Of a DNA stretch of 64,000 nt, positions 7,384 to 49,631 are shown in pieces. The translations under genes were made by a program, and so were the position numbers. The stretch comes from Actinomycetes bacterium (GTDB lineage Bacteria > Actinomycetota > Acidimicrobiia > Acidimicrobiales > GCA-2861595): contig JAHFUS010000005.1 in assembly GCA_023264975.1 (NCBI GenBank), positions 10,771 to 74,770 of the forward strand, in the 5' to 3' direction. The notes below the pieces were generated by a model. It searched no databases. It was given only the letters and a program-made list of their open reading frames with translations, and was not told the DNA's origin. The stretch's first letter is position 1; each line of letters begins with the position of its first letter.

Positions 7384-10152
7384 CTACACGTCGCCCTTCG
7401 TGAGCCGGACTGTGGCGATGGCCCAGGGGGCCAGGGCGAACGAGCCGTCGAACGCGGCAACAGGGCGTCCCCGAAGGTCGACCAGCCAACCGGTACGGCC
7501 GTCGATCCGGACCGTCACAGGCAACGCAGTCGGGTTGAACACCCGCACCTCCAAGGCCCCGGCGACGCGCTGGAGGGCGGACACCTCGGCGCCCTCGACG
7601 GTGAGGGCCCGGCCCGACGGCGGCCGGTTCCCGCCCCCGTCGGCATGCACGACCGGCAGCGGCAGGAAGGCGTCGTCGGCCAGGGCGTAGGCGTCGGCGT
7701 CGCCTACGTGGACGGCGTACCGGGCCTCCACCGGCCCGAGCATCTGCGGGCCGTCGAGCCGATCGGGCGGGCCGGCGGGAAGCGGCCGGGTCAGCATCTC
7801 GACGCGCGAGAGCATGCCGGTGGCCCGCAGGAGGGTGACGGCAAGGGTGGCGGCGGTGTCGTCCTCCACGTCCACCAGCTCGTACTCGAGCAGGCCCTCG
7901 TGGACGACGGTGAGGCCGCCCGCCTGCACGAACCGGCGGGACGGGAAGGTGGGCAGCGGCTCCTCGGTGGGGCCGCCCTCCGCCTCGAGACCCCGCTCCA
8001 CCACGGCGAAGGCGCACTCGGCCCGGCTGACGGTCGCCGGTCCCGGGAGCGGGAAGTGGGCCCGCAGGCGGTGGTCCCGGCTCGGGTTGTCGAATGTCGT
8101 ATGCACGCGCACGAGCCGCTCGCCGGCCCGCACCTCGAGGACGGTGGTGACCTCGACCGTCCGCTCGCCTATGCGCGTTCGCTCCTCGTCGTCGATGCCC
8201 TCGTGCCACGTGAAGGTCCGCCGCACACGCAGGCGGCCCCGAAGGGGACCGGTCTCGACGGCGTCGGTGACCACCGCGTCCGGCGTGTCGACCACCGTGT
8301 CGAACTCGGGCGGCGACCAGTTGTAGGTGTCGCCGTGGTCGCCGCCGTCGACCAGCCGGTCGAAGCCGGCCAGCCCATCGACGGAGAACGTGCCGTCCTC
8401 GGCGTCGACCTCGATGCGCACCAGGCCGTTGTCGAGGACGTTGTCACCCTCGGCCCGCACCGGCTCGGCGGTGCTCGCCGCCGGGGTCCAGGCCGCCCAT
8501 CCGTACCCGGGCACGTCGTCGACCCGGGCCAGCACCCGCCGCGACGGCGGTTGGCTGATGCGCACCCGCACGTCCATGTCGGGCCGGGCGCCGGCCCGCG
8601 CGTAGAGGTCCCGCTTCACCTGCTCGACCAGGAACTCCGTGCGCAGGCGGGCGTCGGCGTGCAGGACGATGTCGAGACCGTCGTCGGTCTCGACCACGTC
8701 GACGGCGTTCACGTAGGTGGTGGCGTCGAGCTGCTGGCTGCGGATCTGGGCCAGGATCCCGCCCAGGTCCCGGGCCTTCACGGTGCGGTCGGCCAGCGCC
8801 GGCGGGCGGTCGTCCAGCACCTGCGTGCCGGGCAGGCGCCCCTCCCCCGCGACTGTGATCTCCACCAGGCCGCTGCGGGCCCGGGCGCTCGGGTTGACCA
8901 CCACCGGGCCGGGCTCGGCCATGGACGACGCCAGGGCGGCGAGAGCCCGGTCGGCCAGGCCGTCGGCGATCTGGCGGGCCTCGGCGAAGCGGTGGAGGAC
9001 GGCGGCGCCCACCTCGTCGGCCGAGCAGGCGCAGATGGAGTCGTGGGCCGAGTTACGGATGACCTCCTTCCACGCCAGCGCCAGCAGCCGGTCGGGCCAC
9101 CGGGCGGGCTCGACGAACAGGGCGCACAGCGGCTCGGCCATGCGCTCCAGGGCCCGCTCGGTCCGGGCCGCCGCCTGCTTCACGTCGACCCGGTTCGACG
9201 CCACGCCCATGAGCAGGTTGGCCCGGGCGCCCGAGCGCAGCTCGCCGGTCCACACCGGCAGCCCGCCGGTGGGAGCGGTGGCCAGGTACTCGGCCAGCGA
9301 CGTCACTTCGAGGCGGTACTCGTCCTGGAGGTCGTTGGCCTCGGCCACCACCCTGCCGAGCCACGGTTGCGGCACCTGGTGGTCGGTGCCGTTCATGAAC
9401 AGCAGGCCGTCGAGGAGGAACGGCTCGACCTCGGCCTCGTGGGAGGCGATGCGGGCGACGAGCGCCTTGGCGTCGTCGGGGATGGCGGCGCCGTTGCCGT
9501 AGCCCCTCAACAGGTACTCGGCTCGCACGGTCGACCCGTCCGGCGCCGACCAACGGAATGCCGACCGGTCGACGGCGCCGGGCACGCCCCGCCACACGAC
9601 TGCGTGCTCGAGCCCGGCCTGGCGCAGGAGCTGGGGCATCTGGGCGATGTGGCCGAACATGTCGGGGAGATAGCCGACCTGGGCCGCTCCGCCGAACGCC
9701 GCCGCCCGCTCCATGCCGAGCTGGAGGTTGCGCACGATGGTCTCGCCCGACACGGCGAACTCGTCCATGAGGACGTACCACGGCCCCATGGCCACCCGGC
9801 CGCCGGCGCCCAGGCGCCGCAGCGTCGCCTCCGCCTCGGGGCGTACCTCGAGGTAGTCGTCCACCACCGCCATCTGCCCGTCGAGCAGGAACCGGGCGTA
9901 CCCGAGGTCGGCCTCCAGCATGGGTAGGAATTCGTCGAGGAGGTCGACCAGGCGGAGGCGGAACGACTGGAACGGGGCGTACCACTCACGGTCCCAGTGG
10001 GTGTGGGGGACGATGGCGACGGTGCGCGGCCGGCGGAGCGTTGGCTGGGTCTCGGGCGTGATGCCAGGGTAGAACGTACAGGTGGGGACTAGAGATGGGA
10101 ACCGACTTTCCGGACGGCGGTCGGCGGGAGGAGCTGGTCGATGGACGGGCAC
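7384..10152 (-). CDS. Glycoside hydrolase family 38 alpha-mannosidase (mannosylglycerate-hydrolase-like); start uncertain
   Basis: ORF 7384..10578. GH38 N-terminal signature VAIVPHTHWDREWY, then GPWYVLMDEF and YLPDMFGH. The track N-terminus overlaps cutA on the other strand and is Arg-rich. The nearest in-frame canonical start upstream of the conserved block is GTG 10152. Confidence 0.85.
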   Translation of the reverse strand: MPVHRPAPPADRRPESRFPSLVPTCTFYPGITPETQPTLRRPRTVAIVPHTHWDREWYAPFQSFRLRLVDLLDEFLPMLEADLGYARFLLDGQMAVVDDYLEVRPEAEATLRRLGAGGRVAMGPWYVLMDEFAVSGETIVRNLQLGMERAAAFGGAAQVGYLPDMFGHIAQMPQLLRQAGLEHAVVWRGVPGAVDRSAFRWSAPDGSTVRAEYLLRGYGNGAAIPDDAKALVARIASHEAEVEPFLLDGLLFMNGTDHQVPQPWLGRVVAEANDLQDEYRLEVTSLAEYLATAPTGGLPVWTGELRSGARANLLMGVASNRVDVKQAAARTERALERMAEPLCALFVEPARWPDRLLALAWKEVIRNSAHDSICACSADEVGAAVLHRFAEARQIADGLADRALAALASSMAEPGPVVVNPSARARSGLVEITVAGEGRLPGTQVLDDRPPALADRTVKARDLGGILAQIRSQQLDATTYVNAVDVVETDDGLDIVLHADARLRTEFLVEQVKRDLYARAGARPDMDVRVRISQPPSRRVLARVDDVPGYGWAAWTPAASTAEPVRAEGDNVLDNGLVRIEVDAEDGTFSVDGLAGFDRLVDGGDHGDTYNWSPPEFDTVVDTPDAVVTDAVETGPLRGRLRVRRTFTWHEGIDDEERTRIGERTVEVTTVLEVRAGERLVRVHTTFDNPSRDHRLRAHFPLPGPATVSRAECAFAVVERGLEAEGGPTEEPLPTFPSRRFVQAGGLTVVHEGLLEYELVDVEDDTAATLAVTLLRATGMLSRVEMLTRPLPAGPPDRLDGPQMLGPVEARYAVHVGDADAYALADDAFLPLPVVHADGGGNRPPSGRALTVEGAEVSALQRVAGALEVRVFNPTALPVTVRIDGRTGWLVDLRGRPVAAFDGSFALAPWAIATVRLTKGDV

Positions 10153-10491
10153 GTACAGGTGCTGACGACGGCCGGCAGCCCCGAGGAGGCGGACGCCATC
10201 GCCGCCGCCCTGCTCGACGCCCGGCTGGCCGCGTGCGTGCAGGTGGTGGGGCCGGTGCGTAGCCGGTATCGCTGGCAGGGTCGGGTGGAGTCGGCCGAGG
10301 AGTGGCTCTGCGTGGTGAAGACCACGGCGGCGGCGGCGGGCGCGGCCATGACCGAGATCGCCCGGGTCCACAGCTACGAAACGCCGGAGATCACTGTGAC
10401 GCCCATCGTGGCCGGCGCTGCGTCGTACCTGGCGTGGATCGACGGGGAGGTCGGCGCCGGCGCCGGCGCACCGGGGCCGTCCGGCCCATAA
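10141..10491 (+). CDS. cutA: Divalent-cation tolerance protein CutA
   Basis: 116 aa. The CutA1 pattern VQVLTTAGSPEEADAIAAALLDARLAACVQV...YRWQG...EEW.CVVKTT...SYETPEI aligns by eye with E. coli CutA. The start could instead be GTG 10156. Confidence 0.85.
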   Translation: MDGHVQVLTTAGSPEEADAIAAALLDARLAACVQVVGPVRSRYRWQGRVESAEEWLCVVKTTAAAAGAAMTEIARVHSYETPEITVTPIVAGAASYLAWIDGEVGAGAGAPGPSGP

Positions 10492-10519
10492 CGGCGGGAC
10501 CGGCCGTACGCTTGCATGC

Positions 10520-11524
10520 ATGACCGTCACCGAGCTGAAGCTGACCGAGTGGACATCGTGCGGTGGGTGCGCGGCCAAGTGGGGCGCCGCCCCGCTGAAC
10601 GCCCTGATCCGCGAGCTGGCAGCCGGCTCGGCCGACCTGCTGGTGGGACTCGCCCCCTTCGACGACGCCGCCGTCTACCGCCTCACCGACGACCTGGCCA
10701 TGGTGTCGACCACCGACTTCTTCCCGCCGCTCGTGGACGACCCCGCCGACTTCGGCGCCATCGCCGCCGCCAACGCGTGCAGCGACGTGTTCGCCATGGG
10801 GGCGCGGGTCGTGCTGGCCCTCAACATCTCTGCCTTCCCCGAGCGCCTGCCGGTGGAGGCGGTGGCCGCCGTCCTGGGCGCCGCCGGCGCGGTGGTGGCC
10901 GAGGCGGGCGGTGTTGTGGCGGGCGGTCACACCATCCGCTCCGAGGAGCCGATCTTCGGCCTCGCCGTGCAGGGGCTGGTGCACCCCGACCGCATCTGGA
11001 CCAAGGCCGGCGCCCGCCCGGGCGACGCCATCGTGCTGTCCAAGCCGCTCGGCACCGGGATCGTGCTGGCCGGCGGTCAGCCCGACGAGAAGGCGGCGGC
11101 CATCGTGCGCATGCGCCAGCTGAACCGGGCTGCGGCTGAGGCCCTGTCCGCCCTGGGCGACGGCGCCGCCCACGCCGTCACCGATGTCACCGGGTTCGGC
11201 CTGTTCGGCCACGGCTGGGAGATGGCCGAGCGCTCCGAAGCCATCCTGCGCTTCCACGCCTCCGCTCTCCCGTTCTACGACGGGGCCCTGGCGGCAGCCG
11301 AGGCGGGCGTGCGCACCGGCGGCGATGCCCGCAACCGGGCGCACCTGGAGGGCCGCGTCACCTCCACCGCCACGGCCGCCGTCGAAGCCCTCGGGTACGA
11401 CCCGCAGACGTCGGGCGGCCTCCTGGCCTCCGTGTCGCCGGCGGACGCCGTCCGCCTGGCCGATGCCGGATTCGTCACCATCGGTGAGGTCGTGACAGGG
11501 CCGGCCGGCGTGGAGGTCGGCTGA
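10520..11524 (+). CDS. selD: Selenide, water dikinase (selenophosphate synthetase), Cys-type
   Basis: 334 aa. N-terminal active-site loop LTEWTSCGGCAAKWG (Cys at the Cys/Sec position). PurM/AIR-synthase-like motifs DDAAVY, TTDFFPP, DVTGFGL. Confidence 0.9.
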   Translation: MTVTELKLTEWTSCGGCAAKWGAAPLNALIRELAAGSADLLVGLAPFDDAAVYRLTDDLAMVSTTDFFPPLVDDPADFGAIAAANACSDVFAMGARVVLALNISAFPERLPVEAVAAVLGAAGAVVAEAGGVVAGGHTIRSEEPIFGLAVQGLVHPDRIWTKAGARPGDAIVLSKPLGTGIVLAGGQPDEKAAAIVRMRQLNRAAAEALSALGDGAAHAVTDVTGFGLFGHGWEMAERSEAILRFHASALPFYDGALAAAEAGVRTGGDARNRAHLEGRVTSTATAAVEALGYDPQTSGGLLASVSPADAVRLADAGFVTIGEVVTGPAGVEVG

Positions 11525-11566
11525 CCGGCTGGGGCTGCCGCGCCGGCCGGCTGTAACGTCCGACTC

Positions 11567-12280
11567 GTGGCGACATCGCGCCAGCAGTTGCGACCGTCGC
11601 TGCGACCCAAGGCTCCCACGCTGGCCCTCGAGCGGGAGCTGTGGGGCCGTGGGCGCGAGGTCGTGGTCGGTGTCGACGAGGTGGGCCGGGGGGCGTGGGC
11701 CGGCCCCATCAGCGTGGGCGCCGCCGTGCTCCCGCCCGACAAGCGGGTCTACAAGGTCCGCGACTCGAAGATGCTCACCGAGGCCGAGCGGGAGCGCCTG
11801 TTCGACCGGGTCGCCTCGTGGTGCCGTGCGTGGGCGGTCGGCCATGCCAGCCAGGTCGAGTGCGACAGCCTCGGGATGTCGGAGGCGCAACGCCTGGCTG
11901 CCCGCCGGGCCGTTGCGGGCCTCGGCATCGAGCCCGACCACGTCCTCATCGACGGCCGCTGGGACTTCGTCGGGAAGGGGCCGGCCGCCACCACCCGCAT
12001 CGTGAAGGGCGACGCCACCTGCCTGTCCATCGCCGCCGCATCGGTGCTGGCCAAGGTCACGCGCGACCGGATCATGCGGGGGGAGGCGCAGCACTACCCG
12101 GGCTACGACTTCGACCTCAACAAGGGGTACCCGTGCCCCCGGCACAAGGCCGCCCTGAAGGCGTGGGGCCCGACCTCGATACACCGCCGCAGCTGGGTGT
12201 TCATGGACAACCTGCCCTGGGGCGTGCGCCCCGCCCCCGACCCCACGCAACCCATGCTGACCGAAGCCCCCGACCTGTGA
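11567..12280 (+). CDS. rnhB: Ribonuclease HII
   Basis: 237 aa. VVGVDEVGRGAWAGP catalytic motif, DSKMLT, IVKGDA and AASVLAKV blocks. Confidence 0.9.
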   Translation: MATSRQQLRPSLRPKAPTLALERELWGRGREVVVGVDEVGRGAWAGPISVGAAVLPPDKRVYKVRDSKMLTEAERERLFDRVASWCRAWAVGHASQVECDSLGMSEAQRLAARRAVAGLGIEPDHVLIDGRWDFVGKGPAATTRIVKGDATCLSIAAASVLAKVTRDRIMRGEAQHYPGYDFDLNKGYPCPRHKAALKAWGPTSIHRRSWVFMDNLPWGVRPAPDPTQPMLTEAPDL

Positions 12281-13116
12281 CGCCAGGTCGAACGGCGGCC
12301 GCCCTGGCCGCCCTCGTGGTGCTGGCCACGGGCGGGTGCAAGGAGCCGGCCAAGCCCTCCCTCGAGCAGTCCGGCCCGCCCGACGCCGCCACCGGCCCTG
12401 CGCAGGGTCAGGCGCTCGAGACGGTGGCGGAGGGCAAGCTCACCGCCTGTACGGCCGTCCCCGACCCGCCCTTTGCCTTCGACGACGAGGGGGAGCTCGA
12501 CGGCATCGACATCGAGCTGGTGCGTGCCGTCGCCGGCCGGCTCGGGCTCGTGCCGACGTTCGAGCAGGTGGCGCCGGGGGAGCTCTTCCGGGCCATGGAT
12601 GCGGGTACCTGCGACCTGGTGGCGGCGTCGGTGACGATCACGTCCGAACGACAGGAGACATTCGCCTTCTCGGCGCCCTACTTCCGGGTCGACCAGTCGC
12701 TACTCGTGCGCAAGGCCGACGAGACGAGGTACCCCGACCTTGCCGCCCTGGCAGGCCGGACGGTGGGTGTGCAGGCGTCGACCAGCGGGGCCGTCTACGC
12801 GCAGGCGAACGGCGCCGGCACCACCGTGAAGGAGTACGGCAGTGCCGACGAGCTGCTGACGGCTCTCGCCGCCAAAGAGGTGGATGCCGCCCTCCAGGAC
12901 CTGCCCGTCAACGCCTTCGACGCCAAGACGACGGGCGAGACGGTCGTCACCGAGACGTTCGCCGACGGCGACAAGGAGCTCTACGGGTTCGTCATGGCGA
13001 AGGGGCGGACGGCGCTGAGGGCGGCGGTGGACGGAGCGCTCGGCCAGGTCCGCTCCGACGACACCTACCCCACCATCCTGCGCAGTTTCCTGGGCGGCAC
13101 GGCCGGGCAGATCTGA
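12277..13116 (+). CDS. Amino-acid ABC transporter substrate-binding lipoprotein (family 3 SBP), orphan
   Basis: In-frame C-terminal part of ORF 11641..13116, starting at GTG 12277 (GTGA overlap with the rnhB stop). Signal plus lipobox AALAALVVLATGGC. SBP_bac_3-like blocks PPFAFDD..G.LDGIDIEL and FSAPYF. No permease or ATPase adjacent. Confidence 0.82.
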   Translation: MTPGRTAAALAALVVLATGGCKEPAKPSLEQSGPPDAATGPAQGQALETVAEGKLTACTAVPDPPFAFDDEGELDGIDIELVRAVAGRLGLVPTFEQVAPGELFRAMDAGTCDLVAASVTITSERQETFAFSAPYFRVDQSLLVRKADETRYPDLAALAGRTVGVQASTSGAVYAQANGAGTTVKEYGSADELLTALAAKEVDAALQDLPVNAFDAKTTGETVVTETFADGDKELYGFVMAKGRTALRAAVDGALGQVRSDDTYPTILRSFLGGTAGQI

Positions 13117-14147: not shown

Positions 14148-14369
14148 CTACTGCTCTGCGTCGAGGAGCGATTGGGCAGCGGCCAGCGCCGTCAGGGGAT
14201 CGGACGTCGACGCCCCTGCGAGCCAGGCGGCCAGAGGAGCATTCTTCCGCTCGGTGCCGTGGGCGACGACCCGGGCCAGGTCGAGGATGGCGTCGACCTC
14301 GGTCGGGTCGAGCGGCGGCACCCCGAGGGCAGCGGCATAGCGGTCCAGCCAGTCGTCCATGGGCCCCAT
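14148..14369 (-). CDS. Small conserved hypothetical protein (DUF6457-like)
   Basis: 73 aa: MGPMDDWLDRYAAALGVPPLDPTEVDAILDLARVVAHGTERKNAPLAAWLAG... From memory this resembles a small actinobacterial family. Non-biased composition, unlike the surrounding shadow ORFs. Confidence 0.55.
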   Translation of the reverse strand: MGPMDDWLDRYAAALGVPPLDPTEVDAILDLARVVAHGTERKNAPLAAWLAGASTSDPLTALAAAQSLLDAEQ

Positions 14370-14429
14370 CCTGGCGCGCCGGCGGGTGGCCCGCCCCGCC
14401 CGCCGATCGGCACAGGGATGCTGCGCGAG

Positions 14430-16257
<1,828 letters not shown>

Positions 16258-16302: not shown

Positions 16303-17838
16303 GTGACCGCGCCGGCGGTGGAACGGGTATGCAAGGGCCAACTCCGGCGAACTTCCTCAGGGCCGGAGCACTTTGCACCCCGAATCCCCAACGTTTCCTC
16401 TCGTCGTCCACAGGACGACCCCTCTACGGTCGTGCCCGGTGACGGTGGCGCGGTGAAGACATGGCCGAATCCACCGTCGTTGGCAGCGGCCCTCGGATTC
16501 GGACGCCGGCACGCTCGGGCGTCGCTGCGCCCGCCGGACCTGGACGACGACCCGGTCGTCGGCGAGGACGACGTAGCCCCGACCGACATGTCGGAGCAGC
16601 CCGGAGAGGACACGGGGCTTGCGGAGGCCGATGGCGGCCTGTCGGTGGATGTGCCCGACGAGGCGGGCCCACCGACCGCGCCCGGAGGCGAAAGGGTGGC
16701 TGCCGGGGGCGACGGCGACCTGTCGGTGGGTCGGCCGGCAGAGGCGAGACTGGCGAACGAGCCCGCTGACGACGTGGCGCCGGCGCCGTGGCCCCGGCCG
16801 CATGCCGCTCCGCCGGCTGCGGCGCCGGGGCTTTCGTCGCCGCCCACCACGTCTCCCGTACCGGCGGCGCCGGACGCCACCCTGAGCGAGGCGGTGGCGG
16901 GCGACCGTATCCGGGCGGCCGCCGAAGGCGCCGTCGCCAGCGACGCCCTGGCCGCGGTCCGCGACGAGCTGGCCGGCGTGCGCCGGCGGCTCTTGGCGGC
17001 GGCGGGAGAGCTGGCCGACCGGCGGGCGGCAGCCGAACAGCAGGAGCAAATGTTCGGCCGGCTCAGTGCCGAGCTCAAGGCGGAGCGTCAGGGTCGTCAG
17101 CAGGAACGTCAGGCGCGGGAGGGCCAGTGTCCCGAGGACCGTGGCCACCTGTCCGCCGATCTCGCCGCAGTGGCCGAACGCCAGCGCCAGGAAGCCGAGC
17201 GGTTGGCGCGGGAGCGCCAGGTGCTCGACGCCATGAGCCGCACGCTCGCCGGCGAGCGGGCCCACCTCGAGCTCGATGCGGAGCGGGACCTGGTCGCTGC
17301 CCAGCGCGCCCATCTCGACGAGGAGCGCTCCGAGCTCGACCGGCTCCGGCGCCGGGCGATGGCGGCGGCGGCCTCCGGCCGGTCGGCCGAGGACGCCCCG
17401 AGCGGTGGGTCGGGCGGCGCAGCGGTGCCGCAGAGTCTCGGCAGCGCCAGGCGCAGCCGGCCCACCGCGGCCCCGCCGGCAGCTGGTCCGCCAGCCCGCA
17501 CCCCAACTCGTTCCCGGTCCGCTGTGGGAGCGGCGCCGGGCGTCGGGGGCCGGCGGTCGACCAACGGCACCGCCCCGCCGGCGGCCCCGAAGGCGCCCCC
17601 CCCGGAGCGCCGCCGCAACGAGACCGATTCCGTGCCGGCGCCGCCCGGGCGCCGCCGCAACGAGGCCGATTCCGTGCCGGTCGTCCCGTCCACCCGTCGC
17701 GAACCGGGTGCCCTCCGCCCGGGGGCCCTCGCCGCTGCCCACCCGCCGGTCGAGGATGCACAGGCGCAGGTCAACAGGCGGCGGCGCCGGGGCGGAAGCG
17801 GAGCTGACGACCTCAGGGCCGACGACCCCTCGAGGTAG
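16303..17838 (+). CDS. Hypothetical disordered/coiled-coil protein; true start probably downstream (candidates GTG 16432, GTG 16453, ATG 16597)
   Basis: ORF track 511 aa. The central segment (AAEQQEQMFGRLSAELKAERQ...AERQRQEAERLARERQVLDAM...AHLDEERSELDRLRRR) is heptad-like, Glu/Arg/Gln-rich and looks genuine. The flanks are Pro/Ala-rich. The first ~100 nt have poor third-position GC and are probably non-coding. No family recognised. Confidence 0.5.
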   Translation: MTAPAVERVCKGQLRRTSSGPEHFAPRIPNVSSRRPQDDPSTVVPGDGGAVKTWPNPPSLAAALGFGRRHARASLRPPDLDDDPVVGEDDVAPTDMSEQPGEDTGLAEADGGLSVDVPDEAGPPTAPGGERVAAGGDGDLSVGRPAEARLANEPADDVAPAPWPRPHAAPPAAAPGLSSPPTTSPVPAAPDATLSEAVAGDRIRAAAEGAVASDALAAVRDELAGVRRRLLAAAGELADRRAAAEQQEQMFGRLSAELKAERQGRQQERQAREGQCPEDRGHLSADLAAVAERQRQEAERLARERQVLDAMSRTLAGERAHLELDAERDLVAAQRAHLDEERSELDRLRRRAMAAAASGRSAEDAPSGGSGGAAVPQSLGSARRSRPTAAPPAAGPPARTPTRSRSAVGAAPGVGGRRSTNGTAPPAAPKAPPPERRRNETDSVPAPPGRRRNEADSVPVVPSTRREPGALRPGALAAAHPPVEDAQAQVNRRRRRGGSGADDLRADDPSR

Positions 17839-17870: not shown

Positions 17871-18344
17871 TCAGGCGGCGTCGAGCGGTTGGGCGCGGAT
17901 GGCAGCGACCGCCGCGTTGAGGGCGTCCGCCTCCAGGATGTCGGCCATGATCCCGATCTGCTCGTCCCAGACCTCGGGCGGGATGTCGGCCTTCACTTCG
18001 TCGTCGAGCACGTGGTACACGCCGAGGCCCAACTGGACCCCTGCCAGCGCACCTGCATATGCCGGGTCTCCCAGCCGGACCGTTTCCGCCGAGATCTCCG
18101 CCGCCTCCGGATCGGGGGCACCGAGGATCACGACGACCTGGTCACGGCCGTGGGTCTCCGCCAGCCGGAGGATTGCCTCCTGGCTCTGCAGGTCCATGGC
18201 GCCTGACGCCGTTCAGACGAAGCACTCCGTGGCCGTGAAGACCACCGTCGCCCCAGCCGCCTCCATGCAGGCGGCGATGGCGGGGCCTGACACCCCGTCA
18301 CGTTCGCCCAAGGCGACGATCTTCTTGCCCTCCAGTACTCCCAC
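17871..18344 (-). CDS. grdA: Glycine/sarcosine/betaine reductase complex selenoprotein A (GrdA), with in-frame TGA = selenocysteine at 18213..18215
   Basis: ORFs 18213..18395 and 17871..18197 are in the same frame, separated by one TGA plus five sense codons. The joined peptide ..VLEGKKIVALGERDGVSGPAIAACMEAAGATVVFTATECFV-U-TASGAMDLQSQEAILRLAETHGRDQVVVILGAP...GDPAYAGALAGVQLGLGVYHV.. matches the GrdA pattern (..TECFVUTAAGAMDLENQ..) as I recall it. The total of ~157 aa fits GrdA. Start GTG 18344 (GGAAGGAG 6 nt upstream) or GTG 18350. Confidence 0.9.
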
Positions 18345-18346
18345 CC

Positions 18347-18694
18347 TCACTCCTTCCCGACGCCGGCACCAGCTGCCAGCGTGTCGTTGACCCACTGCTC
18401 CACCTTCGACTCTGTGAGCGCGGCGCCGGCGATGCGGCCGATCTCTTCGCCGTCACGGAACAGCACGAAGGCGGGCAGGCCCATGAGCCGAAGCTCCATG
18501 CACAGCCGGCGCGCCTTGGGCGCCTCCAACTTGACGACCTTGAACTGCTCTTCCCGCTCGGCGGCCATGCGCTCGATGAACGGCATCATGACCAGGCACG
18601 GCTGGCAGTCCGGACCCCACACGTCGACGAGCGTGGTGCCCTCGGCGACCAGTTCCCGGAAGTTCTCGCGAGTGGCCTCGGTGAGTGTTCCCAT
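18347..18694 (-). CDS. Thioredoxin-family protein with atypical CQPC active site
   Basis: ORF 18347..18712. The start is likely ATG 18694, 1 nt after the grdC stop (alternative 18712). Thioredoxin fold pattern LVDVWGPDCQPCLVMMPFIE...KVVKLEAPKARRL...GLPAFVLFRDGEE. Confidence 0.85.
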   Translation of the reverse strand: MGTLTEATRENFRELVAEGTTLVDVWGPDCQPCLVMMPFIERMAAEREEQFKVVKLEAPKARRLCMELRLMGLPAFVLFRDGEEIGRIAGAALTESKVEQWVNDTLAAGAGVGKE

Positions 18695-18695
18695 C

Positions 18696-20135
18696 TCAGT
18701 TCCCTTTCCCATTGCGCTCCAGCAGCACGCTCATGCCGTCCGACAGCTGCGACATCCGGCCGAGGAACAGGCTTCCCTTGGCCAGCAGCAGCACCTTGTT
18801 CGCGCCTCCCGTGGTGAGGCGGTCGACGGCGTGCGGCAAGTAGCACAGCGAGGATGCCAGATGGCCCTGCGTCGGTGCGAAACCGGGCATGCCGTGCTCG
18901 GCCGCGAACGCGGCGATATCGGCCCGTTCGATCTCGCCCGCCTGGGCCGCCAGTGCGGCGATCGTCTTGTAGTTGCGGGCGGGTACGTCTCCCGAACCCT
19001 GCGGCTCGGTGATCTCCGGGTTGTGCAACTCGGTCGCGTAGTCGTCCACCGCGGCCATGGGGATGCCGAGCCGGCGAAGGGGTTCCACGGCCAGCGCCTC
19101 CATGATCGCCGGGTTCGAGCCGCCCATTCCGACCCGGTGCCGGCCCACGGAGTCGAGCCGGATGCGGGGTGACACGCCGTCGTCGGCCTGCACCAGGGCG
19201 GCGGCGCCGCCGAGCACGTCTTCCATCACCGGCATGTCGTGCTTCAGGTGGCCTTGGAACTTCATGCCGAGCTTGGCCATCGACCCGCCTGCGATGACGG
19301 CGACGCGGTCGAACAGGCCGGCCGACACCATGGCCGCCGCCGTCACCAGCGCCGGCGCAGGGGCGGCGCAGAAGTTCTTCACGTCCATGCCGGACGCCTC
19401 GGACAGACCGGCCACCTCGGCCACCGCCTTGGCCATGTTGCCGCCGCCCCGCTGGTAGCGGTCGCCGATGGCCTCCTCGCCGCACCCGATCACGAAGTCG
19501 ATCGACGCCGGGTCGATGCCCCCGTTGTGCAGGAGGTGCAGGAGGGACAGGGTGGCGGTGGCCTTGGACGCCAGGTTGTCGAGCAGCACGGCGGCGGTGA
19601 GCGCCTCGTCCTCCTCGTGGGCGGCGGTGATCGCCCCGCCCAGCCGGGTCGCGCCGAGGTGCAGGGGCATGCTGCCGGGCCGCAGGAGCACGGCCGCCAC
19701 GTCGCCCTTGGCCTTGTCGATGCGGTCGATGTCGAGGTGCTTGGCCAGCGGGTGGGTCGCCAGTGCGGCGGCTGCTTCGTCGGCCACGTCGGGGGACAGG
19801 GTGATCAGGTCGAAGCGGTCGACCGCCACGAGCAGGCCGAGGAACTCGAGGTCGGGCACGATCTCGCCCCGCGGCCCGAGCCGCGACGCGTTGCCGCTCC
19901 TGCCCCACCAGGGGCGCTCCCCCATGGCACGGGGGTGGACGGCGCCCACGTACGCCTGGTGGGGCGCGTAGGCCACGGCGTCGTCGTAGGAGCGCAGTGA
20001 GGCCAGGAACTTCTCCGACACGTCGGGGTGCCTCGGCAGTTCGCGCGCCGGCTTGGACCCGTGGCGGGCCAGTCCGGGCACGTGGGCCAGCACCTGGGTC
20101 GACCCGGCGACGACGGCCGTCCGTTGCTCGCTCAT
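18696..20135 (-). CDS. grdC: Glycine reductase complex protein C, beta-subunit-like (GrdC)
   Basis: Trimmed from ORF 18696..20264 to MSEQRTAVVAGSTQVLAHVPGL (GGGGAGG 5 nt upstream of ATG 20135). The N-terminal pattern ..LRSYDDAVAYAPHQAYVG...RLGPRGEIVPDLEFLGLL..DRFDLI.. matches the clostridial GrdC pattern as I recall it. 479 aa. Confidence 0.8.
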   Translation of the reverse strand: MSEQRTAVVAGSTQVLAHVPGLARHGSKPARELPRHPDVSEKFLASLRSYDDAVAYAPHQAYVGAVHPRAMGERPWWGRSGNASRLGPRGEIVPDLEFLGLLVAVDRFDLITLSPDVADEAAAALATHPLAKHLDIDRIDKAKGDVAAVLLRPGSMPLHLGATRLGGAITAAHEEDEALTAAVLLDNLASKATATLSLLHLLHNGGIDPASIDFVIGCGEEAIGDRYQRGGGNMAKAVAEVAGLSEASGMDVKNFCAAPAPALVTAAAMVSAGLFDRVAVIAGGSMAKLGMKFQGHLKHDMPVMEDVLGGAAALVQADDGVSPRIRLDSVGRHRVGMGGSNPAIMEALAVEPLRRLGIPMAAVDDYATELHNPEITEPQGSGDVPARNYKTIAALAAQAGEIERADIAAFAAEHGMPGFAPTQGHLASSLCYLPHAVDRLTTGGANKVLLLAKGSLFLGRMSQLSDGMSVLLERNGKGN

Positions 20136-20151
20136 GCGCCTCCCCTGCCCT

Positions 20152-20199
20152 TTCTGGTATCGGAAACCGACCGCTGGCGGTCGGTTTCCGATACCAGAA
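20152..20199. repeat. Perfect inverted repeat / RNA hairpin (about 22 bp stem, 4-nt loop) between grdB and grdC
   Basis: TTCTGGTATCGGAAACCGACCGC-TG-GCGGTCGGTTTCCGATACCAGAA read directly. Lies 10 nt after the grdB stop and 17 nt before the grdC ATG. No U/T tract on either side. Confidence 0.9.
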
Positions 20200-20208
20200 G
20201 CTTGGCCG

Positions 20209-21513
20209 TCACTCCGTCTCCCGGTCGACCGGGAACAGGGTCGGCTTGTGGACGGCGGTGGCAACCGCCTCCAGGCCCCGCTCCACCAGCCTCCGCCGCC
20301 ACGCCCGCTCCTTCTCGGCCCCGAGCGACGGGTCGCCCGTCGGGTAGGGGATGCCCCGCGTGGGTACGATGCGCGGCGCCCCCACCCGCTCGGCGATCGA
20401 GGTGAGGTTGCACAGCAGTGCCGTGGGAATCCCGGCCCGCTCCAACTCCTTCGCTAGCGTTGACCCGCAACGCGTCCCCGTTCCTCACGTGGCGGTGAGC
20501 AGGGCGGCCTGCACCCCCTGTCTGCGCAGGTCGGCCGCCCACTCCACGCCGAAGCGGCGGGCGTTGCCCACCGACGTGCCGTTGCCCGCCGTCACCAGGT
20601 ACTCGCCGTGCAGCTTGCCGATGGCGCCCTCGGCCTCCAACTGGCGGGCCGCGTCCAGGGGGACGATGCGGTGCGGGTCCTCGTTGGCCCACACGGTGGA
20701 GAAGCCGCCGTGCACCGACCGGAACTCGCCGGCGGGCAGGACATCGCGACCGTCGAGCGAGTACCGCAGCCAGCGGGTGGCGCGGGCGGACTCGAGGCTG
20801 TCGGGGTTGGCGTCGGGCACCAGAGCGCCCTCGGTGACGAGGGCCACCAGGGCGGTGGTGACATCGGTCACCGGCTGGGCCGGCGTCACCTGGTCGAAGC
20901 GGGGGAGGGGGACCTCCGTCGCCTCCCGGTCGCCACCCAGGCGGGCCAGCACCAGGGCGACGGCCCGCTCCGCGCTGGTCCGGTCGACGGTGACGTTGCG
21001 GCGGGGGATCTTGCCCACCCGGCCGTCGTCGGCACCCAGGGGCTCGCCTGCGGCAACCTTGCGGACGGCGGCGGCCAGTGTCTCCAGCGACGGCCCCATC
21101 TGGCGGGCCACCTCGCCGCTGGCCACCACGGGGGCGGTGCCGGCTTCGTCGATGCCCGGGTTGTCGGGGTGCATGCAGGCCACGGCGGCGATGCCCTCGG
21201 CCGCGGCCGCGGCGGCCACCCGCGCGCAGGCCAGGCCGTAGCGGCCGCTCGTGAATGCGGGGCCGGTGACCACCACGTCGGGACCGGCCGCCCGCACCAG
21301 GGCCAGGAGGTCGTCCATCACCTCGGGGCCGGCGGCGTGGTCGTCGCCGCACCACACCGTGGCCACGATCTCGAAGTCGTCGCCCAGTAACTGGGCCAGC
21401 TTGCGCCCGGGCCCGGCGGCGCCCGCCTTCGACGCCGGCGGCACCGTGGCGGTGTCCTCCCCGCCGAGGCCGGCGAAGAACTGGTTGATGTAGTGGACGA
21501 CGCGTGTGGTCAC
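20209..21513 (-). CDS. grdB: Glycine/sarcosine/betaine reductase selenoprotein B (GrdB/GrdF/GrdH family), with in-frame TGA = selenocysteine at 20485..20487
   Basis: The C-terminal part of ORF 20485..22335 (from VTTRVVHYINQFFAGLGGED) and ORF 20209..20445 share one frame, separated by one TGA plus 13 sense codons. The joined peptide ..GVQAALLTAT-U-GTGTRCGSTLAKELERAGIPTALLC...RIVPTRGIPYPTGDPSL.. follows the GrdB pattern (..TSTUGTCTRCGATMVKEIERAGIP..) as I recall it. GTG 21513 has AGGAGG 6 nt upstream and a GTGA overlap with the grdE stop. 434 aa. Confidence 0.9.
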
Positions 21514-22808
21514 GAGGCCTCCTGACACGTGAGGTGGCCCCAGCCGAGGGGGCTGAGCGAGGCGTAGACGACGGCGGCGGGCAGCTCGAAGGCGTCGAGG
21601 GCGGTGGCGGCGGCCACGTCGACCCGGTCGCCACCGAGCGCCCGTTCCATGGCGGGGAGCGACAGCCGCTCGTCGTAGTTGCCGGTGCTCACCATGGCGG
21701 TCGCCTTGGTGGGCGGCACCACGATCGACGGCCCGGTGCCGTCCGCCCCTGCCATCTCGGCGTAGAGGGCGACGGTGGGTATACCCAGCTCTTCGAGGGC
21801 GTCCATCTTGAGGGCCATGTCGGCGTCGGCGTTGCCGCCACCCTCCTTGGTGACGATGACGGCGTCGAACCCGGCCGCCTTGCACAGGCGGGCGGCGTGG
21901 GCGCTCACCAGTTCCTTGTTGGTGGCGTCGACCGGTTCGGGCGACAGCACCACGCCGGCGCAGAGCAGATCGACGCCGTGGCGGGCCCGCAGGGCGGCCA
22001 CCACCGGGTGGTTCTGGAACACCCAGGTGGGGTTCTTGAGGCTGGGGTGGCCCAGCTGACCGCTCACCACGGCGCCGTCGTCGAGGTCGCCCGGGTCGAT
22101 GAGGGTGGGCAGGGCGATGGAGCCGAAGCTGCGCCCGTAGACGAAGATCTCCTTGAACGTGCCCTGCGTCTGGAGGTTGGTGATGGCCGCCACCCGGGGC
22201 AGGCTCCGGTCGCCGGCATCGGGCAGCCCGGGCAGCTCCTCGACGGCATCGGGGGTGGCGCCCAGGGCCGCCTCGGCCAGTCGGGCGGCGAGAGCCAGCG
22301 AGCCATTGCGTAGCGCCTCGTAGACGGCCTCCCATGCCGCGCCGGGAGCGGGTGCGAACTCGACCACCAGGTTGTGGGTGGTGCCGAGGGGCGACAGTGG
22401 TGCGGCCGGCCCGGACATGTCGACCACGGCCTCCTGGGCCCGGGGCAGGAAACCGGCCGTCACCACCGCTGTGCCCCGCAGGACGTGCGTGGTGCCGCGA
22501 CCCTGGGGCATGGCGGGCCCGACGAAGCCCGGGAAGATACCTCCGCCACCCGGGCCCTTGGTGCGGGGCTCCACTGCATCCAGAACCTTCACGATTCGGG
22601 TCGAATCGCCCGGCGATGCCCAGGACACCCGTACCTCGGCCAGCGCAGGGTCGGCCACGAGGGCCGCAGCTTCGGCGGACGACACGGTGAGCGTACCGGC
22701 GTCGTACGTGGTCTGGTCACCGAGTGCGACGGCGCGCACAAGGTGGACCAGCCGGGTCAGACCTGTGCCGGAGCTGTCTCGTGCCGACGCACCACTCCTC
22801 GCGTCCAC
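21510..22808 (-). CDS. grdE: Glycine reductase proprotein GrdE-like (substrate-binding protein B alpha/beta precursor)
   Basis: 432 aa. The blocks ..RLVHLVRAVALGDQTTYDAGTLTV..SWASPGDSTRIVKVLDAVEPRTK.. resemble the clostridial GrdE N-terminus (..IKDVQFGEKT...ARPGESVRI.PVKDVIEPR.K). The position upstream of grdB also fits. The exact start is uncertain: GTG 22808 has only a weak SD. Confidence 0.8.
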   Translation of the reverse strand: MDARSGASARDSSGTGLTRLVHLVRAVALGDQTTYDAGTLTVSSAEAAALVADPALAEVRVSWASPGDSTRIVKVLDAVEPRTKGPGGGGIFPGFVGPAMPQGRGTTHVLRGTAVVTAGFLPRAQEAVVDMSGPAAPLSPLGTTHNLVVEFAPAPGAAWEAVYEALRNGSLALAARLAEAALGATPDAVEELPGLPDAGDRSLPRVAAITNLQTQGTFKEIFVYGRSFGSIALPTLIDPGDLDDGAVVSGQLGHPSLKNPTWVFQNHPVVAALRARHGVDLLCAGVVLSPEPVDATNKELVSAHAARLCKAAGFDAVIVTKEGGGNADADMALKMDALEELGIPTVALYAEMAGADGTGPSIVVPPTKATAMVSTGNYDERLSLPAMERALGGDRVDVAAATALDAFELPAAVVYASLSPLGWGHLTCQEAS

Positions 22809-28617: not shown

Positions 28618-30849
28618 TCACATGCGCTCGATCCGTACGGCCGCCTGTTTGTAGTTGGGTTCGCGCGAGATCGGGTCGAACTCATCGACGGTGAGGCGGT
28701 TTGCGCAGCGCTCGTCGTAGTGGAAGGGCACGAACACCTCGCCCTCGCGCACGATGGCCGTTACCCGCACCAGCAGGTCGTCCACCACGCCCCGCCGCGA
28801 CGCCAGCCGCACCAGGTCGCCGGAGCCGAGGCCGAGGTGCTCCGCGTCGACCGGGTTGATCTCCACCCACGCCTCCGGCGCAAGGTGGTCGAGCACCGCC
28901 ACCCGGCCGGTCTTGGTGCGGGTGTGCCAGTGCTCGACGGTGCGACCGGTGTTCAACAGGAACGGGTAGCGGGAGCTCGGGGCGTCGCTGATGGGCTGCG
29001 GGGTGACGCACCACAGCTTCGCCCTGCCGCTCGGCGTCTGGAACACGCCGTCGGCGTAGATGCGTGGGGTGCCTCCCACCGCCTCCGTCTCCGGCGTGCA
29101 CGGCCACTGGACGCCGCCCGCGGCGTCGATGCGGTCGTACGTGATGCCGCTGTAGTCACACAGCCGCCCGGCCGACACCCGGGCCCATTCGATGAACGCG
29201 TCCTCGGGTGTGGTCCACCCCGGGTAGAGCTCGCCGGCCATGCCGAATGCCTGGGCCATGGCGAGGAAGATGTCGAAGTCGGCCTTGGCCTGGCCCGGCG
29301 GCTCGACCGCTTTGCGGACCCGGGAGACCCGGCGCTCGGCGTTGGTGTAGGTGCCGTCCTTCTCGCCCCAGATGGCGGCGGGGAGCACCACATCGGCCAT
29401 GGCGGTGGTGGGCGTGGCGAAGCCGTCCTGCACGACGAACAGGTCGAGCTTGCGGATGGCCGCCTCCAGGCGGGCCCGGTTCGGGAAGGACACCACCGGG
29501 TTGGTGGCGATGACCCAAAGCCCCTTGATGGTGCCGTCGAGGACGCCGTCGATGATGTCGGGGTAGGCCCGGCCCCGCTCGGTGGGGAGGCGATCGGCGG
29601 GCACGCCCCACAGGGCCGCCATCTCAGCCCGGGCGGCCGGGTCGTCCCAGTTGCGGTAGCCGGGCAGCGATGCGGTGCCGCCCGCCTCCCGGGTGCCCAT
29701 GGCGTTGCACTGGCCGGTGAGGGAGAAGGGGGCGGCGCCGGCCCGACCCACATTGCCCGTCACCAGGCACAGGGTGTTGAGCAGCGTGACGGTCTCGGTG
29801 CCCTGCACCGAGTGGTTGACGCCCATCGTCCACGCCACGAAGGCCCGCTCGGCCCTACCGAAGGCGAGGGCCGCCTCCCGGATCTGATCGGCCGGCACGC
29901 CGCAGTCGACCGCCACCCGGTCGAGGTCGTAGGCGGCCACGTGGGCGGCCAGCTCGGCGAAGCCCTCGGTGTGGGCGTCGACGTAAGCCCGGTCGACAAG
30001 GCCCTCGTCGATGATCACCTTCAGCATCCCGTTGACCAGGGCGATGTCGCTGCGGGGCCGGACGGCCAGGTGGAGGTCGGCGACCATGGCCGTCTTGGTG
30101 ACGCGCGGGTCGACCACGATCACGGTGGCGCCGGCGTTGTCGAGCACGCGGGGCGCCAGCAGCGGATGGTTGTCGGCCACGTTGGCGCCGACGAGCAGGA
30201 TTACGTCGGCCTGCTCGAGGTCCTCATAGGCGCCCGGCGGGCCGTCGCTGCCGAAGCTGCGCTTGTAACCGGCCACCGCGCTCGACATGCACAGCGTGGT
30301 GTTGCCGTCGTAGTGGCGCAGGCCCAGGCCGCCCCGGCACAGCTTGCCAAGGGCGTAGAACTCCTCGGTCACCAGTTGGCCGGTGCTGATGACGGCCACC
30401 GCCTCGGGCCCGTGCTCGTGCAGCAGCCGGTTGAAGCCCACGACGGTGGCGCCCAGCGCCTCGTCCCAGGTGGCCGGCTCCTGGGCGCCGCCCGCCGACC
30501 TGCGAAGGAGGGGAGTGGTGAGTCGCCCTTGTGCGGCAAGGGTCTGGTGCTCGGAGAGGCCCTTAGGGCACAGGCGACCCGCGTTCACCGGGTGGTCGGG
30601 ATCGCCCTGAACCGCCACCGCAATGCCGTCCTTGACACCCACGAACATGCCGCACCCCACCGCGCAGTAGCCGCACGTCGTGCGCACCCACGTGTCGGGT
30701 TTTCGGGTCTCGTTCAGCGTTCCGAACCGGTCGTCGGCCACGTACGCCCGCGGCGACGTGCTGGCCGCCCGTGCCGCGTCGGCCGCTTCCTCGGACCGGG
30801 TCCCCAGCCCGAGCAGCCGGGTGAGGGCGGCTCCCCCCGGCCGGCTCAC
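28618..30849 (-). CDS. nasC: Assimilatory nitrate reductase catalytic subunit (molybdopterin oxidoreductase, NasC/NarB type)
   Basis: 743 aa. N-terminal 4Fe-4S motif TTCGYCAVGCGMFVG...RLCPKG. MopB-type blocks and a C-terminal molybdopterin-binding beta-barrel. No twin-arginine signal. Context with nirBD and narK. GTG start. Confidence 0.88.
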   Translation of the reverse strand: MSRPGGAALTRLLGLGTRSEEAADAARAASTSPRAYVADDRFGTLNETRKPDTWVRTTCGYCAVGCGMFVGVKDGIAVAVQGDPDHPVNAGRLCPKGLSEHQTLAAQGRLTTPLLRRSAGGAQEPATWDEALGATVVGFNRLLHEHGPEAVAVISTGQLVTEEFYALGKLCRGGLGLRHYDGNTTLCMSSAVAGYKRSFGSDGPPGAYEDLEQADVILLVGANVADNHPLLAPRVLDNAGATVIVVDPRVTKTAMVADLHLAVRPRSDIALVNGMLKVIIDEGLVDRAYVDAHTEGFAELAAHVAAYDLDRVAVDCGVPADQIREAALAFGRAERAFVAWTMGVNHSVQGTETVTLLNTLCLVTGNVGRAGAAPFSLTGQCNAMGTREAGGTASLPGYRNWDDPAARAEMAALWGVPADRLPTERGRAYPDIIDGVLDGTIKGLWVIATNPVVSFPNRARLEAAIRKLDLFVVQDGFATPTTAMADVVLPAAIWGEKDGTYTNAERRVSRVRKAVEPPGQAKADFDIFLAMAQAFGMAGELYPGWTTPEDAFIEWARVSAGRLCDYSGITYDRIDAAGGVQWPCTPETEAVGGTPRIYADGVFQTPSGRAKLWCVTPQPISDAPSSRYPFLLNTGRTVEHWHTRTKTGRVAVLDHLAPEAWVEINPVDAEHLGLGSGDLVRLASRRGVVDDLLVRVTAIVREGEVFVPFHYDERCANRLTVDEFDPISREPNYKQAAVRIERM

Positions 30850-30859
30850 GGCCCGGCCG

Positions 30860-30906
30860 CTTTCGAGTAAATAGGGTGTCGTTTTGACACCCTATTTACT
30901 CGAAAG
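30860..30906. repeat. Perfect AT-rich inverted repeat / RNA hairpin (21 bp stem, 5-nt loop) between the Fe-S/DmsC gene and nasC
   Basis: CTTTCGAGTAAATAGGGTGTC-GTTTT-GACACCCTATTTACTCGAAAG read directly. Lies 13 nt after the upstream stop (30920..30922) and 10 nt before nasC GTG 30849. Strikingly AT-rich for this DNA. Confidence 0.9.
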
Positions 30907-30919
30907 AGGGGGAGGGCGG

Positions 30920-32479: not shown

Positions 32480-32829
32480 GTGATCGCGACCTCGACCCTG
32501 CCATCGCGCTCACGGATCAGATGAACCGGGAGGGACACGGCGGGATCGTCGAGGCACGTACCCGTGCGCAGGTCGAAGCTCTGCTTGTACATCGGTGACG
32601 CGACCTTGGGCACATCGCCCTTCGAACCCACGATGCCGCGGGAGATCACGTTGGCGCCGCTGAACGGGTCGTGGTTCGAAAGGGCGAACAGCTCGTCGGT
32701 GGGCGAGACGCGGAACAACGCGACCTGCCGGCCGTCCACCAGGGCGCACGCGCCCCGGTCGGGGACGAGGTCGTCGAAGGCGCAGACGTCCTGCCAGGTG
32801 AGCGTGGCGGTATCGAGGATGGCTGTCAT
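32476..32829 (-). CDS. nirD: Nitrite reductase [NAD(P)H] small subunit NirD
   Basis: C-terminal 117 aa of ORF 32476..34524 (MTAILDTATLTWQDVCAFDDLVPDRGACALVDGRQVALFR...SPMYKQSFDLRTGTCLDD). Rieske-like NirD fold pattern. ATGA overlap with the nirB stop. Confidence 0.9.
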   Translation of the reverse strand: MTAILDTATLTWQDVCAFDDLVPDRGACALVDGRQVALFRVSPTDELFALSNHDPFSGANVISRGIVGSKGDVPKVASPMYKQSFDLRTGTCLDDPAVSLPVHLIRERDGRVEVAIT

Positions 32830-49396: not shown

Positions 49397-49631
49397 TGGT
49401 GCGCGTCTCGATGGGTCAAGGGTCCGACTCTGCGACGGCGCCCCATCGCTCCCGTCCTGTTGCCATCATGCGCTACTCGAGTTACGCCCTCGTGGCTTGA
49501 GTACCAAGGGCCCATGACCGTTCTGTGAAAGCCGCCTGAACGCCCGACGCCAACCCCTCGGGGCGTTCGGGATGGCTTCAACTCCCGCGCCTACCCCGCA
49601 CTGCACCGGCCGAAACACAGAAAAGTTTTAT

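Follow-up and report, generated by a model that had tools for sequence, protein, structure and literature searches.

A 64-kb stretch of Acidimicrobiales DNA (the window, to which gene counts and negative results for the source genome refer) carries five minus-strand genes that probably form an intact reductase operon of the glycine/sarcosine/betaine reductase (Grd) family, expressed as selenoproteins. The genes run in one direction from 22808 to 17871 and encode, in this order, a GrdE-like protein, a GrdB-like selenoprotein B, GrdC, a thioredoxin (Trx) and selenoprotein A (GrdA). In textbooks, Grd enzymes figure as selenoenzymes of strict anaerobes. An earlier note on this DNA had proposed a selenocysteine (Sec)-dependent operon of Grd type in an actinobacterial setting; this is strongly supported by the family models, the Sec columns, the conserved TGA codons and a conserved hairpin, and the coordinates given there for all five genes hold (Table 1).

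The stop codon of grdE and the start codon of grdB share the sequence GTGA, the TGA stop of grdC is separated by 1 nt from the ATG of trx, and the TGA stop of trx lies 2 nt from the GTG of grdA. Translation with read-through places both open reading frame (ORF) pieces of grdB in one frame, and likewise those of grdA. The single in-frame TGA that had been held responsible for splitting each gene was seen at 20487..20485 (grdB) and 18215..18213 (grdA), and neither gene contains any further in-frame stop.

Full-length family matches were scored with TGA translated as Sec against NCBIfam and Pfam profiles and their curated cutoffs. GrdA reaches 206.9 bits with NF040748 (cutoff 130), its residues 4-152 covering positions 1-149 of the 151 in the profile, scores 202 bits with PF04723 and carries the CxxU redox motif (ECFV-U-TASGAMDL). 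GrdC exceeds the NF040746 equivalog cutoff over its full length, also matches PF19364 and is 40% identical to the GrdC proteins of Enterococcus gilvus and Acetoanaerobium noterae. The GrdB-like protein lies above the subfamily cutoff of TIGR01918 (401 vs. 65 bits), matches PF07355 as well, and falls below every equivalog cutoff, namely those of GrdB (TIGR01917, 373/602 bits), GrdF (NF040794, 412/800) and GrdH (NF040795, 350/775). The GrdE-like protein scores 321 bits with PF09338 (Gly_reductase, gathering score 22); its best NCBIfam match is GrdG at 218 bits (cutoff 780), and FarE gives 143 (cutoff 675). In NCBIfam, Trx scores highest with the clostridial TrxA model (84.6 bits, under the cutoff of 140), and its C-Q-P-C site resembles the C-E-P-C of Grd-associated thioredoxins. 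As judged from these profile scores, the matches of the read-through proteins are far above chance. In the joined translations, U falls in the family Sec column of both GrdA and GrdB, an alignment on which the earlier note had made its reading depend. The U of the GrdB-like protein shares an alignment column with the Sec residues of A. noterae GrdB and E. gilvus GrdH, and within its context (LLTAT-U-GTGTRCG) the segment T-U-GTGTRCG is invariant in 69 loci. A PDB sequence search found no solved relatives of the GrdE-like protein or of GrdC, and an exact look-up of the window GrdC in public assemblies returned no record.

Orthologous loci were obtained by scanning one genome per GTDB species with alignment of the GrdE-like relatives; the best 80 loci were fetched, each covering ±10 kb around the operon. 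The codon in the Sec column is TGA in 69/69 grdB and 61/61 grdA orthologues of related metagenome-assembled genomes (MAGs), that is in 130/130 genes, and the peptide is kept on both sides of it (58-98% identity). A global reassignment of TGA was considered and ruled out, as TGA is an ordinary stop codon in the window: because it normally ends 23 of the 29 annotated genes, all five operon genes among them, there is no change of the genetic code. SelD supplies the selenophosphate for Sec synthesis, and a selD gene lies 6.3 kb from grdA (TIGR00476, 326 bits vs. cutoff 125). In three relatives (L058, L064 and L080) a selB-selA-tRNA-Sec-selD cluster is located directly upstream of the orthologous operon, and in a fourth (L067) selB and selD adjoin it upstream. 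By comparison across these genes, the TGAs of grdB and grdA are predicted to be recoded Sec codons rather than pseudogene stops.

Single-sequence folds of the regions past the two UGAs are not significant alone (z -1 to -2), and a comparative analysis was therefore needed. Right after the grdB UGA stands an invariant nucleotide block, ACGCGUUGCGGG[U/G]C[A/G]ACGCU, in which synonymous diversity falls to 0.00-0.07 at codons +4 to +9, vs. a gene mean of 0.40 and values of 0.61-0.69 in the three codons just ahead of the block. Among the codons kept constant are CGU and UCA/GCA, unfavourable choices in a genome of 72% GC. The block folds as a hairpin of 6-7 bp, six pairs of which are formed in 71/71 distinct sequences; at its base, the actinobacterial sequences pair G with C and both Firmicutes references U with A, a compensatory exchange. 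A. noterae grdB and E. gilvus grdH have exactly the same hairpin core, CGUUGCGG...CAACG, and, because core and position are common to the Firmicutes grdB and grdH genes, the structure is regarded as a homologue of the canonical grdB Sec insertion sequence (SECIS). An Rfam scan gave a sub-threshold SECIS_4 match at 20447-20484, after the grdB UGA, and no match after the grdA UGA. Conserved beyond what coding needs, the grdB hairpin thus has the signature of a SECIS under nucleotide-level selection.

In grdA, a CCUG/CAGG stem lies about 21 nt past the UGA; of 58 distinct sequences, 55-58 retain its four pairs. At an additional fifth position, 9 sequences pair A-U, 8 pair G-C and 40 are unpaired, with A-U and G-C occurring in different lineages. 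The overlapping 8-bp hairpin of this genome survives in just some 60% of the sequences. Counts over orthologues revealed no convincing covariation in either of these two candidate stems.

Table 1. Features of the operon and its surroundings (positions refer to the 64-kb window).
Feature	Position	Strand	Details
grdE-like	21510..22808	-	432 aa; PF09338, 321 bits; predicted substrate-specific partner subunit of 'protein B', non-pyruvoyl type
grdB-like selenoprotein B	20209..21513	-	one UGA, predicted read through; TIGR01918, 401 bits (cutoff 65)
In-frame UGA of grdB, predicted Sec codon	20485..20487	-	TGA in 69/69 orthologues
grdB hairpin, predicted SECIS	20457..20473	-	stem GCGUUG/CAACGC, loop CGGGU; starts 11 nt past UGA
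Perfect inverted repeat in grdB-grdC spacer	20154..20197	-	20-nt arms, about 21 bp paired in predicted fold, 4-nt loop
grdC, protein C beta subunit, thiolase/FabH-like	18696..20135	-	479 aa; NF040746, 559 bits (cutoff 450)
Thioredoxin (Grd-associated type)	18347..18694	-	active site C-Q-P-C; PF00085
grdA selenoprotein A	17871..18344	-	one UGA, predicted read through; NF040748, 207 bits (cutoff 130)
In-frame UGA of grdA, predicted Sec codon	18213..18215	-	TGA in 61/61 orthologues
grdA candidate SECIS region	18164..18192	-	CCUG/CAGG stem 18179-18192; overlapping 8-bp GC-rich hairpin 18164-18184
selD (selenide, water dikinase), Cys form	10400-11524	+	TIGR00476, 326 bits; AIRS and AIRS_C domains; start codon inferred (gene then 10520..11524)

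The B component departs from the canonical enzyme at its catalytic sites. Canonical GrdE reads DGAILSGN-C242-VSA-C246-DKNPT, in which the two cysteines form the pyruvoyl group, whereas the window protein and its clade read DGAVVSGQ-[L/F/Y]-GHP-[S/G]-LKNPT. With the flanking DGAxxSG and KNPT as anchors, the alignment of the window protein and clade members shows L/F/Y in the Cys242 column and S/G/P in the Cys246 column. Since both pyruvoyl-forming cysteines are replaced, the GrdE-like protein is not a proprotein, and the earlier designation of its gene as one has to be abandoned (SGQ[L/F/Y]GHPS in place of Cys242 and Cys246). In a library of representatives at 50% identity, 9 of 132 near-full-length relatives have Cys in the Cys242 column, where Tyr and Phe dominate. 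The GrdB site is likewise altered: the window and each of the 69 orthologues have U-G-T-G-T-R-C, the references U-G-T-C-T-R-C, so that UxxGxxC stands in place of the canonical UxxCxxC motif of GrdB, GrdF and GrdH. Loss of the pyruvoyl cysteine has also been described for the betaine protein GrdI and the fluoroacetate protein FarE, and has been tied to substrates that need no Schiff base (PMC10838667). A B component with no pyruvoyl group has no known route by which to activate primary or secondary amines such as glycine or sarcosine via a Schiff base. By their sequences, the GrdE-like and GrdB-like proteins together constitute a distinct, predicted non-canonical Grd subtype, and the B component would most likely accept a substrate with an intrinsically good leaving group that can be displaced without imine chemistry.

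GrdE-like relatives occur in at least 224 GTDB species, mostly MAGs of Acidimicrobiia and Thermoleophilia, and all 80 fetched loci come from MAGs. By the taxon label of the record, 33 of these loci belong to Acidimicrobiales, Acidimicrobiia or Acidimicrobiaceae, 17 are of Thermoleophilia type (Solirubrobacterales, Thermoleophilaceae) and 26 are from unclassified Actinomycetota or Actinomycetes; Mycobacteriales contribute two, Egibacteraceae and Gemmatimonadales one each. The nearest locus, from an Acidimicrobiales MAG (L001), encodes five proteins 91-98% identical to those of the window, and GrdE-like orthologues are 59-95% identical across the 80 loci. The order grdE-grdB-grdC-(trx)-grdA recurs in about 60 loci, essentially all those of sufficient length, and the flanks differ; trx is present in about 50 related operons and missing from 11. 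The conserved module is thus these five genes, or four where trx is missing. In the representative library the clade forms a compact, isolated group: identity to the query is 61% or more among its representatives, 45-47% in two sister clusters and no higher than 42% in everything else. One sister-clade representative, a Logan contig (L083, P0125), has adjacent genes for a GrdE-like protein (45% identical, with the SGQYGHP motif) and a GrdB-like protein (59%). Many of the isolate names of the host MAGs suggest arid or Antarctic soils.

Three reference clusters served for comparison, those of E. gilvus and A. noterae from a plasmid collection and a third from Photobacterium. Their orders are trxB-trx-grdA-grdC-grdD-grdI-grdH-BCCT in E. 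gilvus (pCR1A), grdX-trxB-trxA-grdE-grdA-grdB-grdC-grdD in A. noterae and trxB-trx-grdA-grdA-grdC-grdD-grdE-grdB in Photobacterium, with grdD directly after grdC in 3/3. With two GrdD references as queries, tblastn (E<=1e-3) returned no hit in the 64-kb window or in any of the 80 related loci, and grdX is missing from them as well. The earlier note had named grdD and trxB as genes to be sought; grdD was missing throughout these sequences, and trxB is linked in 2/80 loci, both from Thermoleophilaceae and both with the gene immediately downstream of grdA (L011:6375-7373 and L012:14743-15822). No consistently linked gene hints at the substrate or could replace GrdD, no family being present in more than 11 of the 80 loci. 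GrdD, the PlsX-like alpha subunit of protein C with the acetyl-thioester Cys, reportedly carries the acetyl-thioester/acetyl-phosphate step in the canonical enzyme. All these genomes would therefore either have a GrdD gene at another location or use a different final reaction.

The steps proposed for the window operon take as their template the established Grd mechanism, to the extent that it is relayed from Andreesen (2004) in two later papers (PMC10838667; PMC13188914). The UGAs of grdB and grdA would be recoded to Sec by SelB and tRNA-Sec acting on the downstream hairpins. An X-CH2-COO- substrate would be bound by the GrdE-like/GrdB-like pair, and the GrdB selenol would displace X at the α-carbon to give a Se-carboxymethyl intermediate, from which the carboxymethyl group would be passed on to the CxxU site of GrdA. 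The C2 unit would be taken by GrdC as an acyl-thioester, and oxidized GrdA (Se-S) would be re-reduced by the co-encoded Trx, with NADPH spent. The last step would rely on a GrdD encoded at another place in the genome or would not form acetyl phosphate, e.g., with release of acetate or acetyl-CoA from GrdC.

Three other explanations of the locus have to be weighed against a functional, non-canonical reductase. That the genes are decaying pseudogenes, or that the TGAs are true stops giving truncated or no products, is hardly credible and is effectively refuted by the comparative data: TGA occupies the exact Sec column in 130/130 orthologous genes, the coding sequence past it is conserved and free of other in-frame stops, the SECIS appears to be under purifying selection, and selD lies nearby, with sel clusters adjoining the operon in relatives. 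What speaks for decay are the fragments reported by gene callers and the lack of selA, selB and tRNA-Sec in the window. Another, improbable alternative is that the operon encodes the canonical reductase of glycine or sarcosine, whose GrdE bears a pyruvoyl group and which makes acetyl phosphate for ATP, as in Stickland fermenters or the reductive glycine pathway. Such an enzyme would explain why GrdA and GrdC score above their equivalog cutoffs, why GrdF and GrdG are the best NCBIfam matches of the B subunits and why relatives are labelled 'glycine reductase' or 'sarcosine reductase' in databases. The clostridial glycine reductase of Acetoanaerobium/Clostridium sticklandii and Peptoclostridium acidaminophilum, ordered grdX-trxB-trxA-grdE-grdA-grdB-grdC-grdD, also has in common with the window a CxxU GrdA, a GrdB-family selenoprotein, a PF09338 partner, GrdC and a CxPC thioredoxin, as well as the grdB SECIS core (CGUUGCGG-N-KCAACG) at the same position. 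By contrast, the window operon lacks Cys242 and Cys246, as do all aligned clade members, has UxxGxxC instead of UxxCxxC and no linked grdD (the acetyl phosphate-forming subunit) or grdX, follows the order grdE-grdB-grdC-trx-grdA, shows 34-47% identity and is located in a high-GC actinobacterium beside genes of aerobic type; its GrdB, GrdF and GrdG scores all lie under the curated cutoffs (373/602, 412/800 and 218/780).

A closer candidate, though still rather doubtful, is an orthologue of betaine reductase (GrdH/GrdI) that makes trimethylamine from the osmolyte glycine betaine. The partner subunit of that enzyme also lacks the pyruvoyl cysteine and is presumably uncleaved, with a hydrophobic or aromatic residue for Cys242 in GrdI as in the window and no proprotein processing, and its A and C components are like those found here. 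Arid and Antarctic soils, from which many of the host MAGs apparently come, to go by their isolate names, should be rich in compatible solutes such as betaine. However, GrdH is the lowest of the three B models (350 bits, cutoff 775), and the window proteins are only 33-35% identical to E. gilvus GrdI/GrdH, no closer than to GrdE/GrdB. In E. gilvus, GrdH keeps UxxCxxC and both grdD and a betaine transporter are linked, whereas no BCCT or Opu transporter is linked here. Most of the nearest family relatives are also without Cys242, so that the trait is not specific to betaine. FarB/FarE of Synergistota provide a precedent for a B component that has lost the pyruvoyl cysteines, has an altered CxxC beside the Sec and handles a non-amine leaving group (PMC10838667). 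FarB is reported to be without the conserved CxxC residues (PMC10838667), whereas the window GrdB keeps one Cys; the Synergistota host draws GrdA, GrdC and GrdD from a canonical cluster, and the window protein scores 143 with FarE (cutoff 675). Homology to D-proline reductase is only distant (PrdB 69 bits, PrdA 35 bits, far under the cutoffs); there PrdA has a pyruvoyl group and the PrdA/PrdB system works without GrdA or GrdC, a different architecture.

Several observations weigh against a functional, non-canonical Grd operon or blur its outline. Of the Sec machinery, selD is in the 64-kb window; selA, selB and tRNA-Sec, which the earlier note had wanted sought, are not, and adjoin the operon in three relatives. 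In the grdA candidate SECIS region only a short stem of 4-5 bp is conserved, a conservation that can mostly be put down to codon usage. No transporter or pathway gene is consistently linked in the related loci, and GrdD may be encoded elsewhere in these genomes. The substrate could, with low confidence, be a quaternary ammonium or other 'onium' acetate, e.g., glycine betaine, as read from the missing residues only; similarly, it is from the neighbouring genes only that the host would be taken for an aerobic or facultative heterotroph. With these points considered, the broader proposal can be put forward tentatively, as a possibility and not yet as a probability: aerobic or facultative soil and desert Actinomycetota may keep a new Grd type, independent of the pyruvoyl group and of GrdD, that would cleave a non-glycine X-CH2-COO- substrate, be driven by NADPH and thioredoxin and not end in GrdD-made acetyl phosphate.

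As far as found, this type of operon is visible in databases yet undescribed and mis-called. The expectation that gene callers would report only fragments proved right, as both selenoproteins are split in public calls: one locus (L084) has GRDB as 342+66 aa and GRDA as 41+112 aa, and the GrdA relatives on public record are almost without exception C-terminal fragments of 106-112 aa. In databases, the GrdE-like proteins from these MAGs bear names such as 'glycine/sarcosine/betaine reductase component B subunit' and 'sarcosine/glycine reductase'. Metabolic reconstructions of these MAGs would consequently overlook the pathway or enter it under the wrong name, 'glycine/sarcosine reductase.' A literature search found no description of Grd in Acidimicrobiia, Thermoleophilia or soil Actinomycetota. 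An early selenoproteome survey lists GrdA/GrdB under 'Actinobacteria' for Symbiobacterium only, and in a GTDB-wide Grd phylogeny the sequences were filtered by the canonical GrdB motif. In a 2026 review, glycine reductase is still presented as belonging to certain anaerobes, with UxxCxxC in GrdB, and selenoproteins as rarely kept by aerobic bacteria (PMC13188914). A conserved operon with two predicted Sec codons, altered catalytic motifs and no linked grdD is found in at least 224 species of uncultured Acidimicrobiia and Thermoleophilia; among its neighbours are genes for pyruvate dehydrogenase (PDH) E1, the glyoxylate shunt, multicopper oxidase and KatG. If functional, it would extend selenium dependence to abundant soil Actinomycetota, indicate an uncharacterised substrate class within the Grd family and call the obligatory role of GrdD into question; if the broader proposal is true, the family would gain a further class of substrates and a novel architecture of protein C, in an unexpected lineage and lifestyle.

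The surroundings described by the earlier note are borne out: the window is about 72% GC and encodes PDH E1, two PhaC proteins for polyhydroxyalkanoate synthesis, malate synthase and isocitrate lyase of the glyoxylate shunt, and NirB. Other genes encode ThiC, a DJ-1/PfpI protein, RNase HII, a GH38 mannosidase, a GAF-GGDEF protein, MsrB and a multicopper oxidase. In one relative (L064) KatG lies beside selD. The window SelD has the motif SCGGCAAK, and its gene is followed by that for RNase HII.

Some deviations at the Sec position were noted in single records. To our knowledge, GrdA has long been held to have no Cys homologues; a metagenomic GrdA homologue that is 68% identical (L085:154-609) has TGC (Cys) instead of TGA and lies directly after the end of grdC, with no trx between them. 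This is a single contig of 1.2 kb, and a sequencing error is possible. A public GrdA record of 166 aa (P0338) has Trp at the Sec position, its contig having probably been translated with a code in which TGA is Trp. In L012, grdB (11269-12488) and grdA (14350-14801) each appear as two high-scoring segment pairs in different frames, which could be frameshifts or errors of MAG assembly.

Upstream of grdE and divergent from it, nine Acidimicrobiales loci (L032, at 7410-9977, and L035, L036, L040, L042, L048, L052, L053 and L065) encode a protein of about 560-800 aa with a weak match to a copper-amine-oxidase domain (35 bits), and in 5 of the 9 loci a SAM methyltransferase stands beside the gene. 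This neighbour may hint at amine metabolism, though not generally so; FAD amine oxidases are near the operon in one locus only.

The perfect inverted repeat between grdB and grdC has a fold energy of -50.1 kcal/mol (z = -8). It is unique in the window and other loci are without it, their spacers being mostly short; a weaker hairpin occupies the same spacer position in L001. It is neither a member of a repeat family nor conserved, and it may be an RNA stabilizer, an attenuator or an inserted element.

Elsewhere in the window, a molybdopterin oxidoreductase, a fused 4Fe-4S/DmsC-like protein and a NirB-type nitrite reductase are encoded in a row on the minus strand (28618-36587), and the molybdopterin oxidoreductase gene has no in-frame TGA. 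Two divergent PhaC paralogues (47175-49415, minus strand; 50511-52307, plus strand) lie near the genes for PDH E1, malate synthase, isocitrate lyase and the multicopper oxidase. Convergent to grdA, a plus-strand ORF (16303-17838) would encode 511 residues rich in Ala, Arg, Pro and Glu, with no Pfam match, in a region where several long ORFs overlap on both strands.

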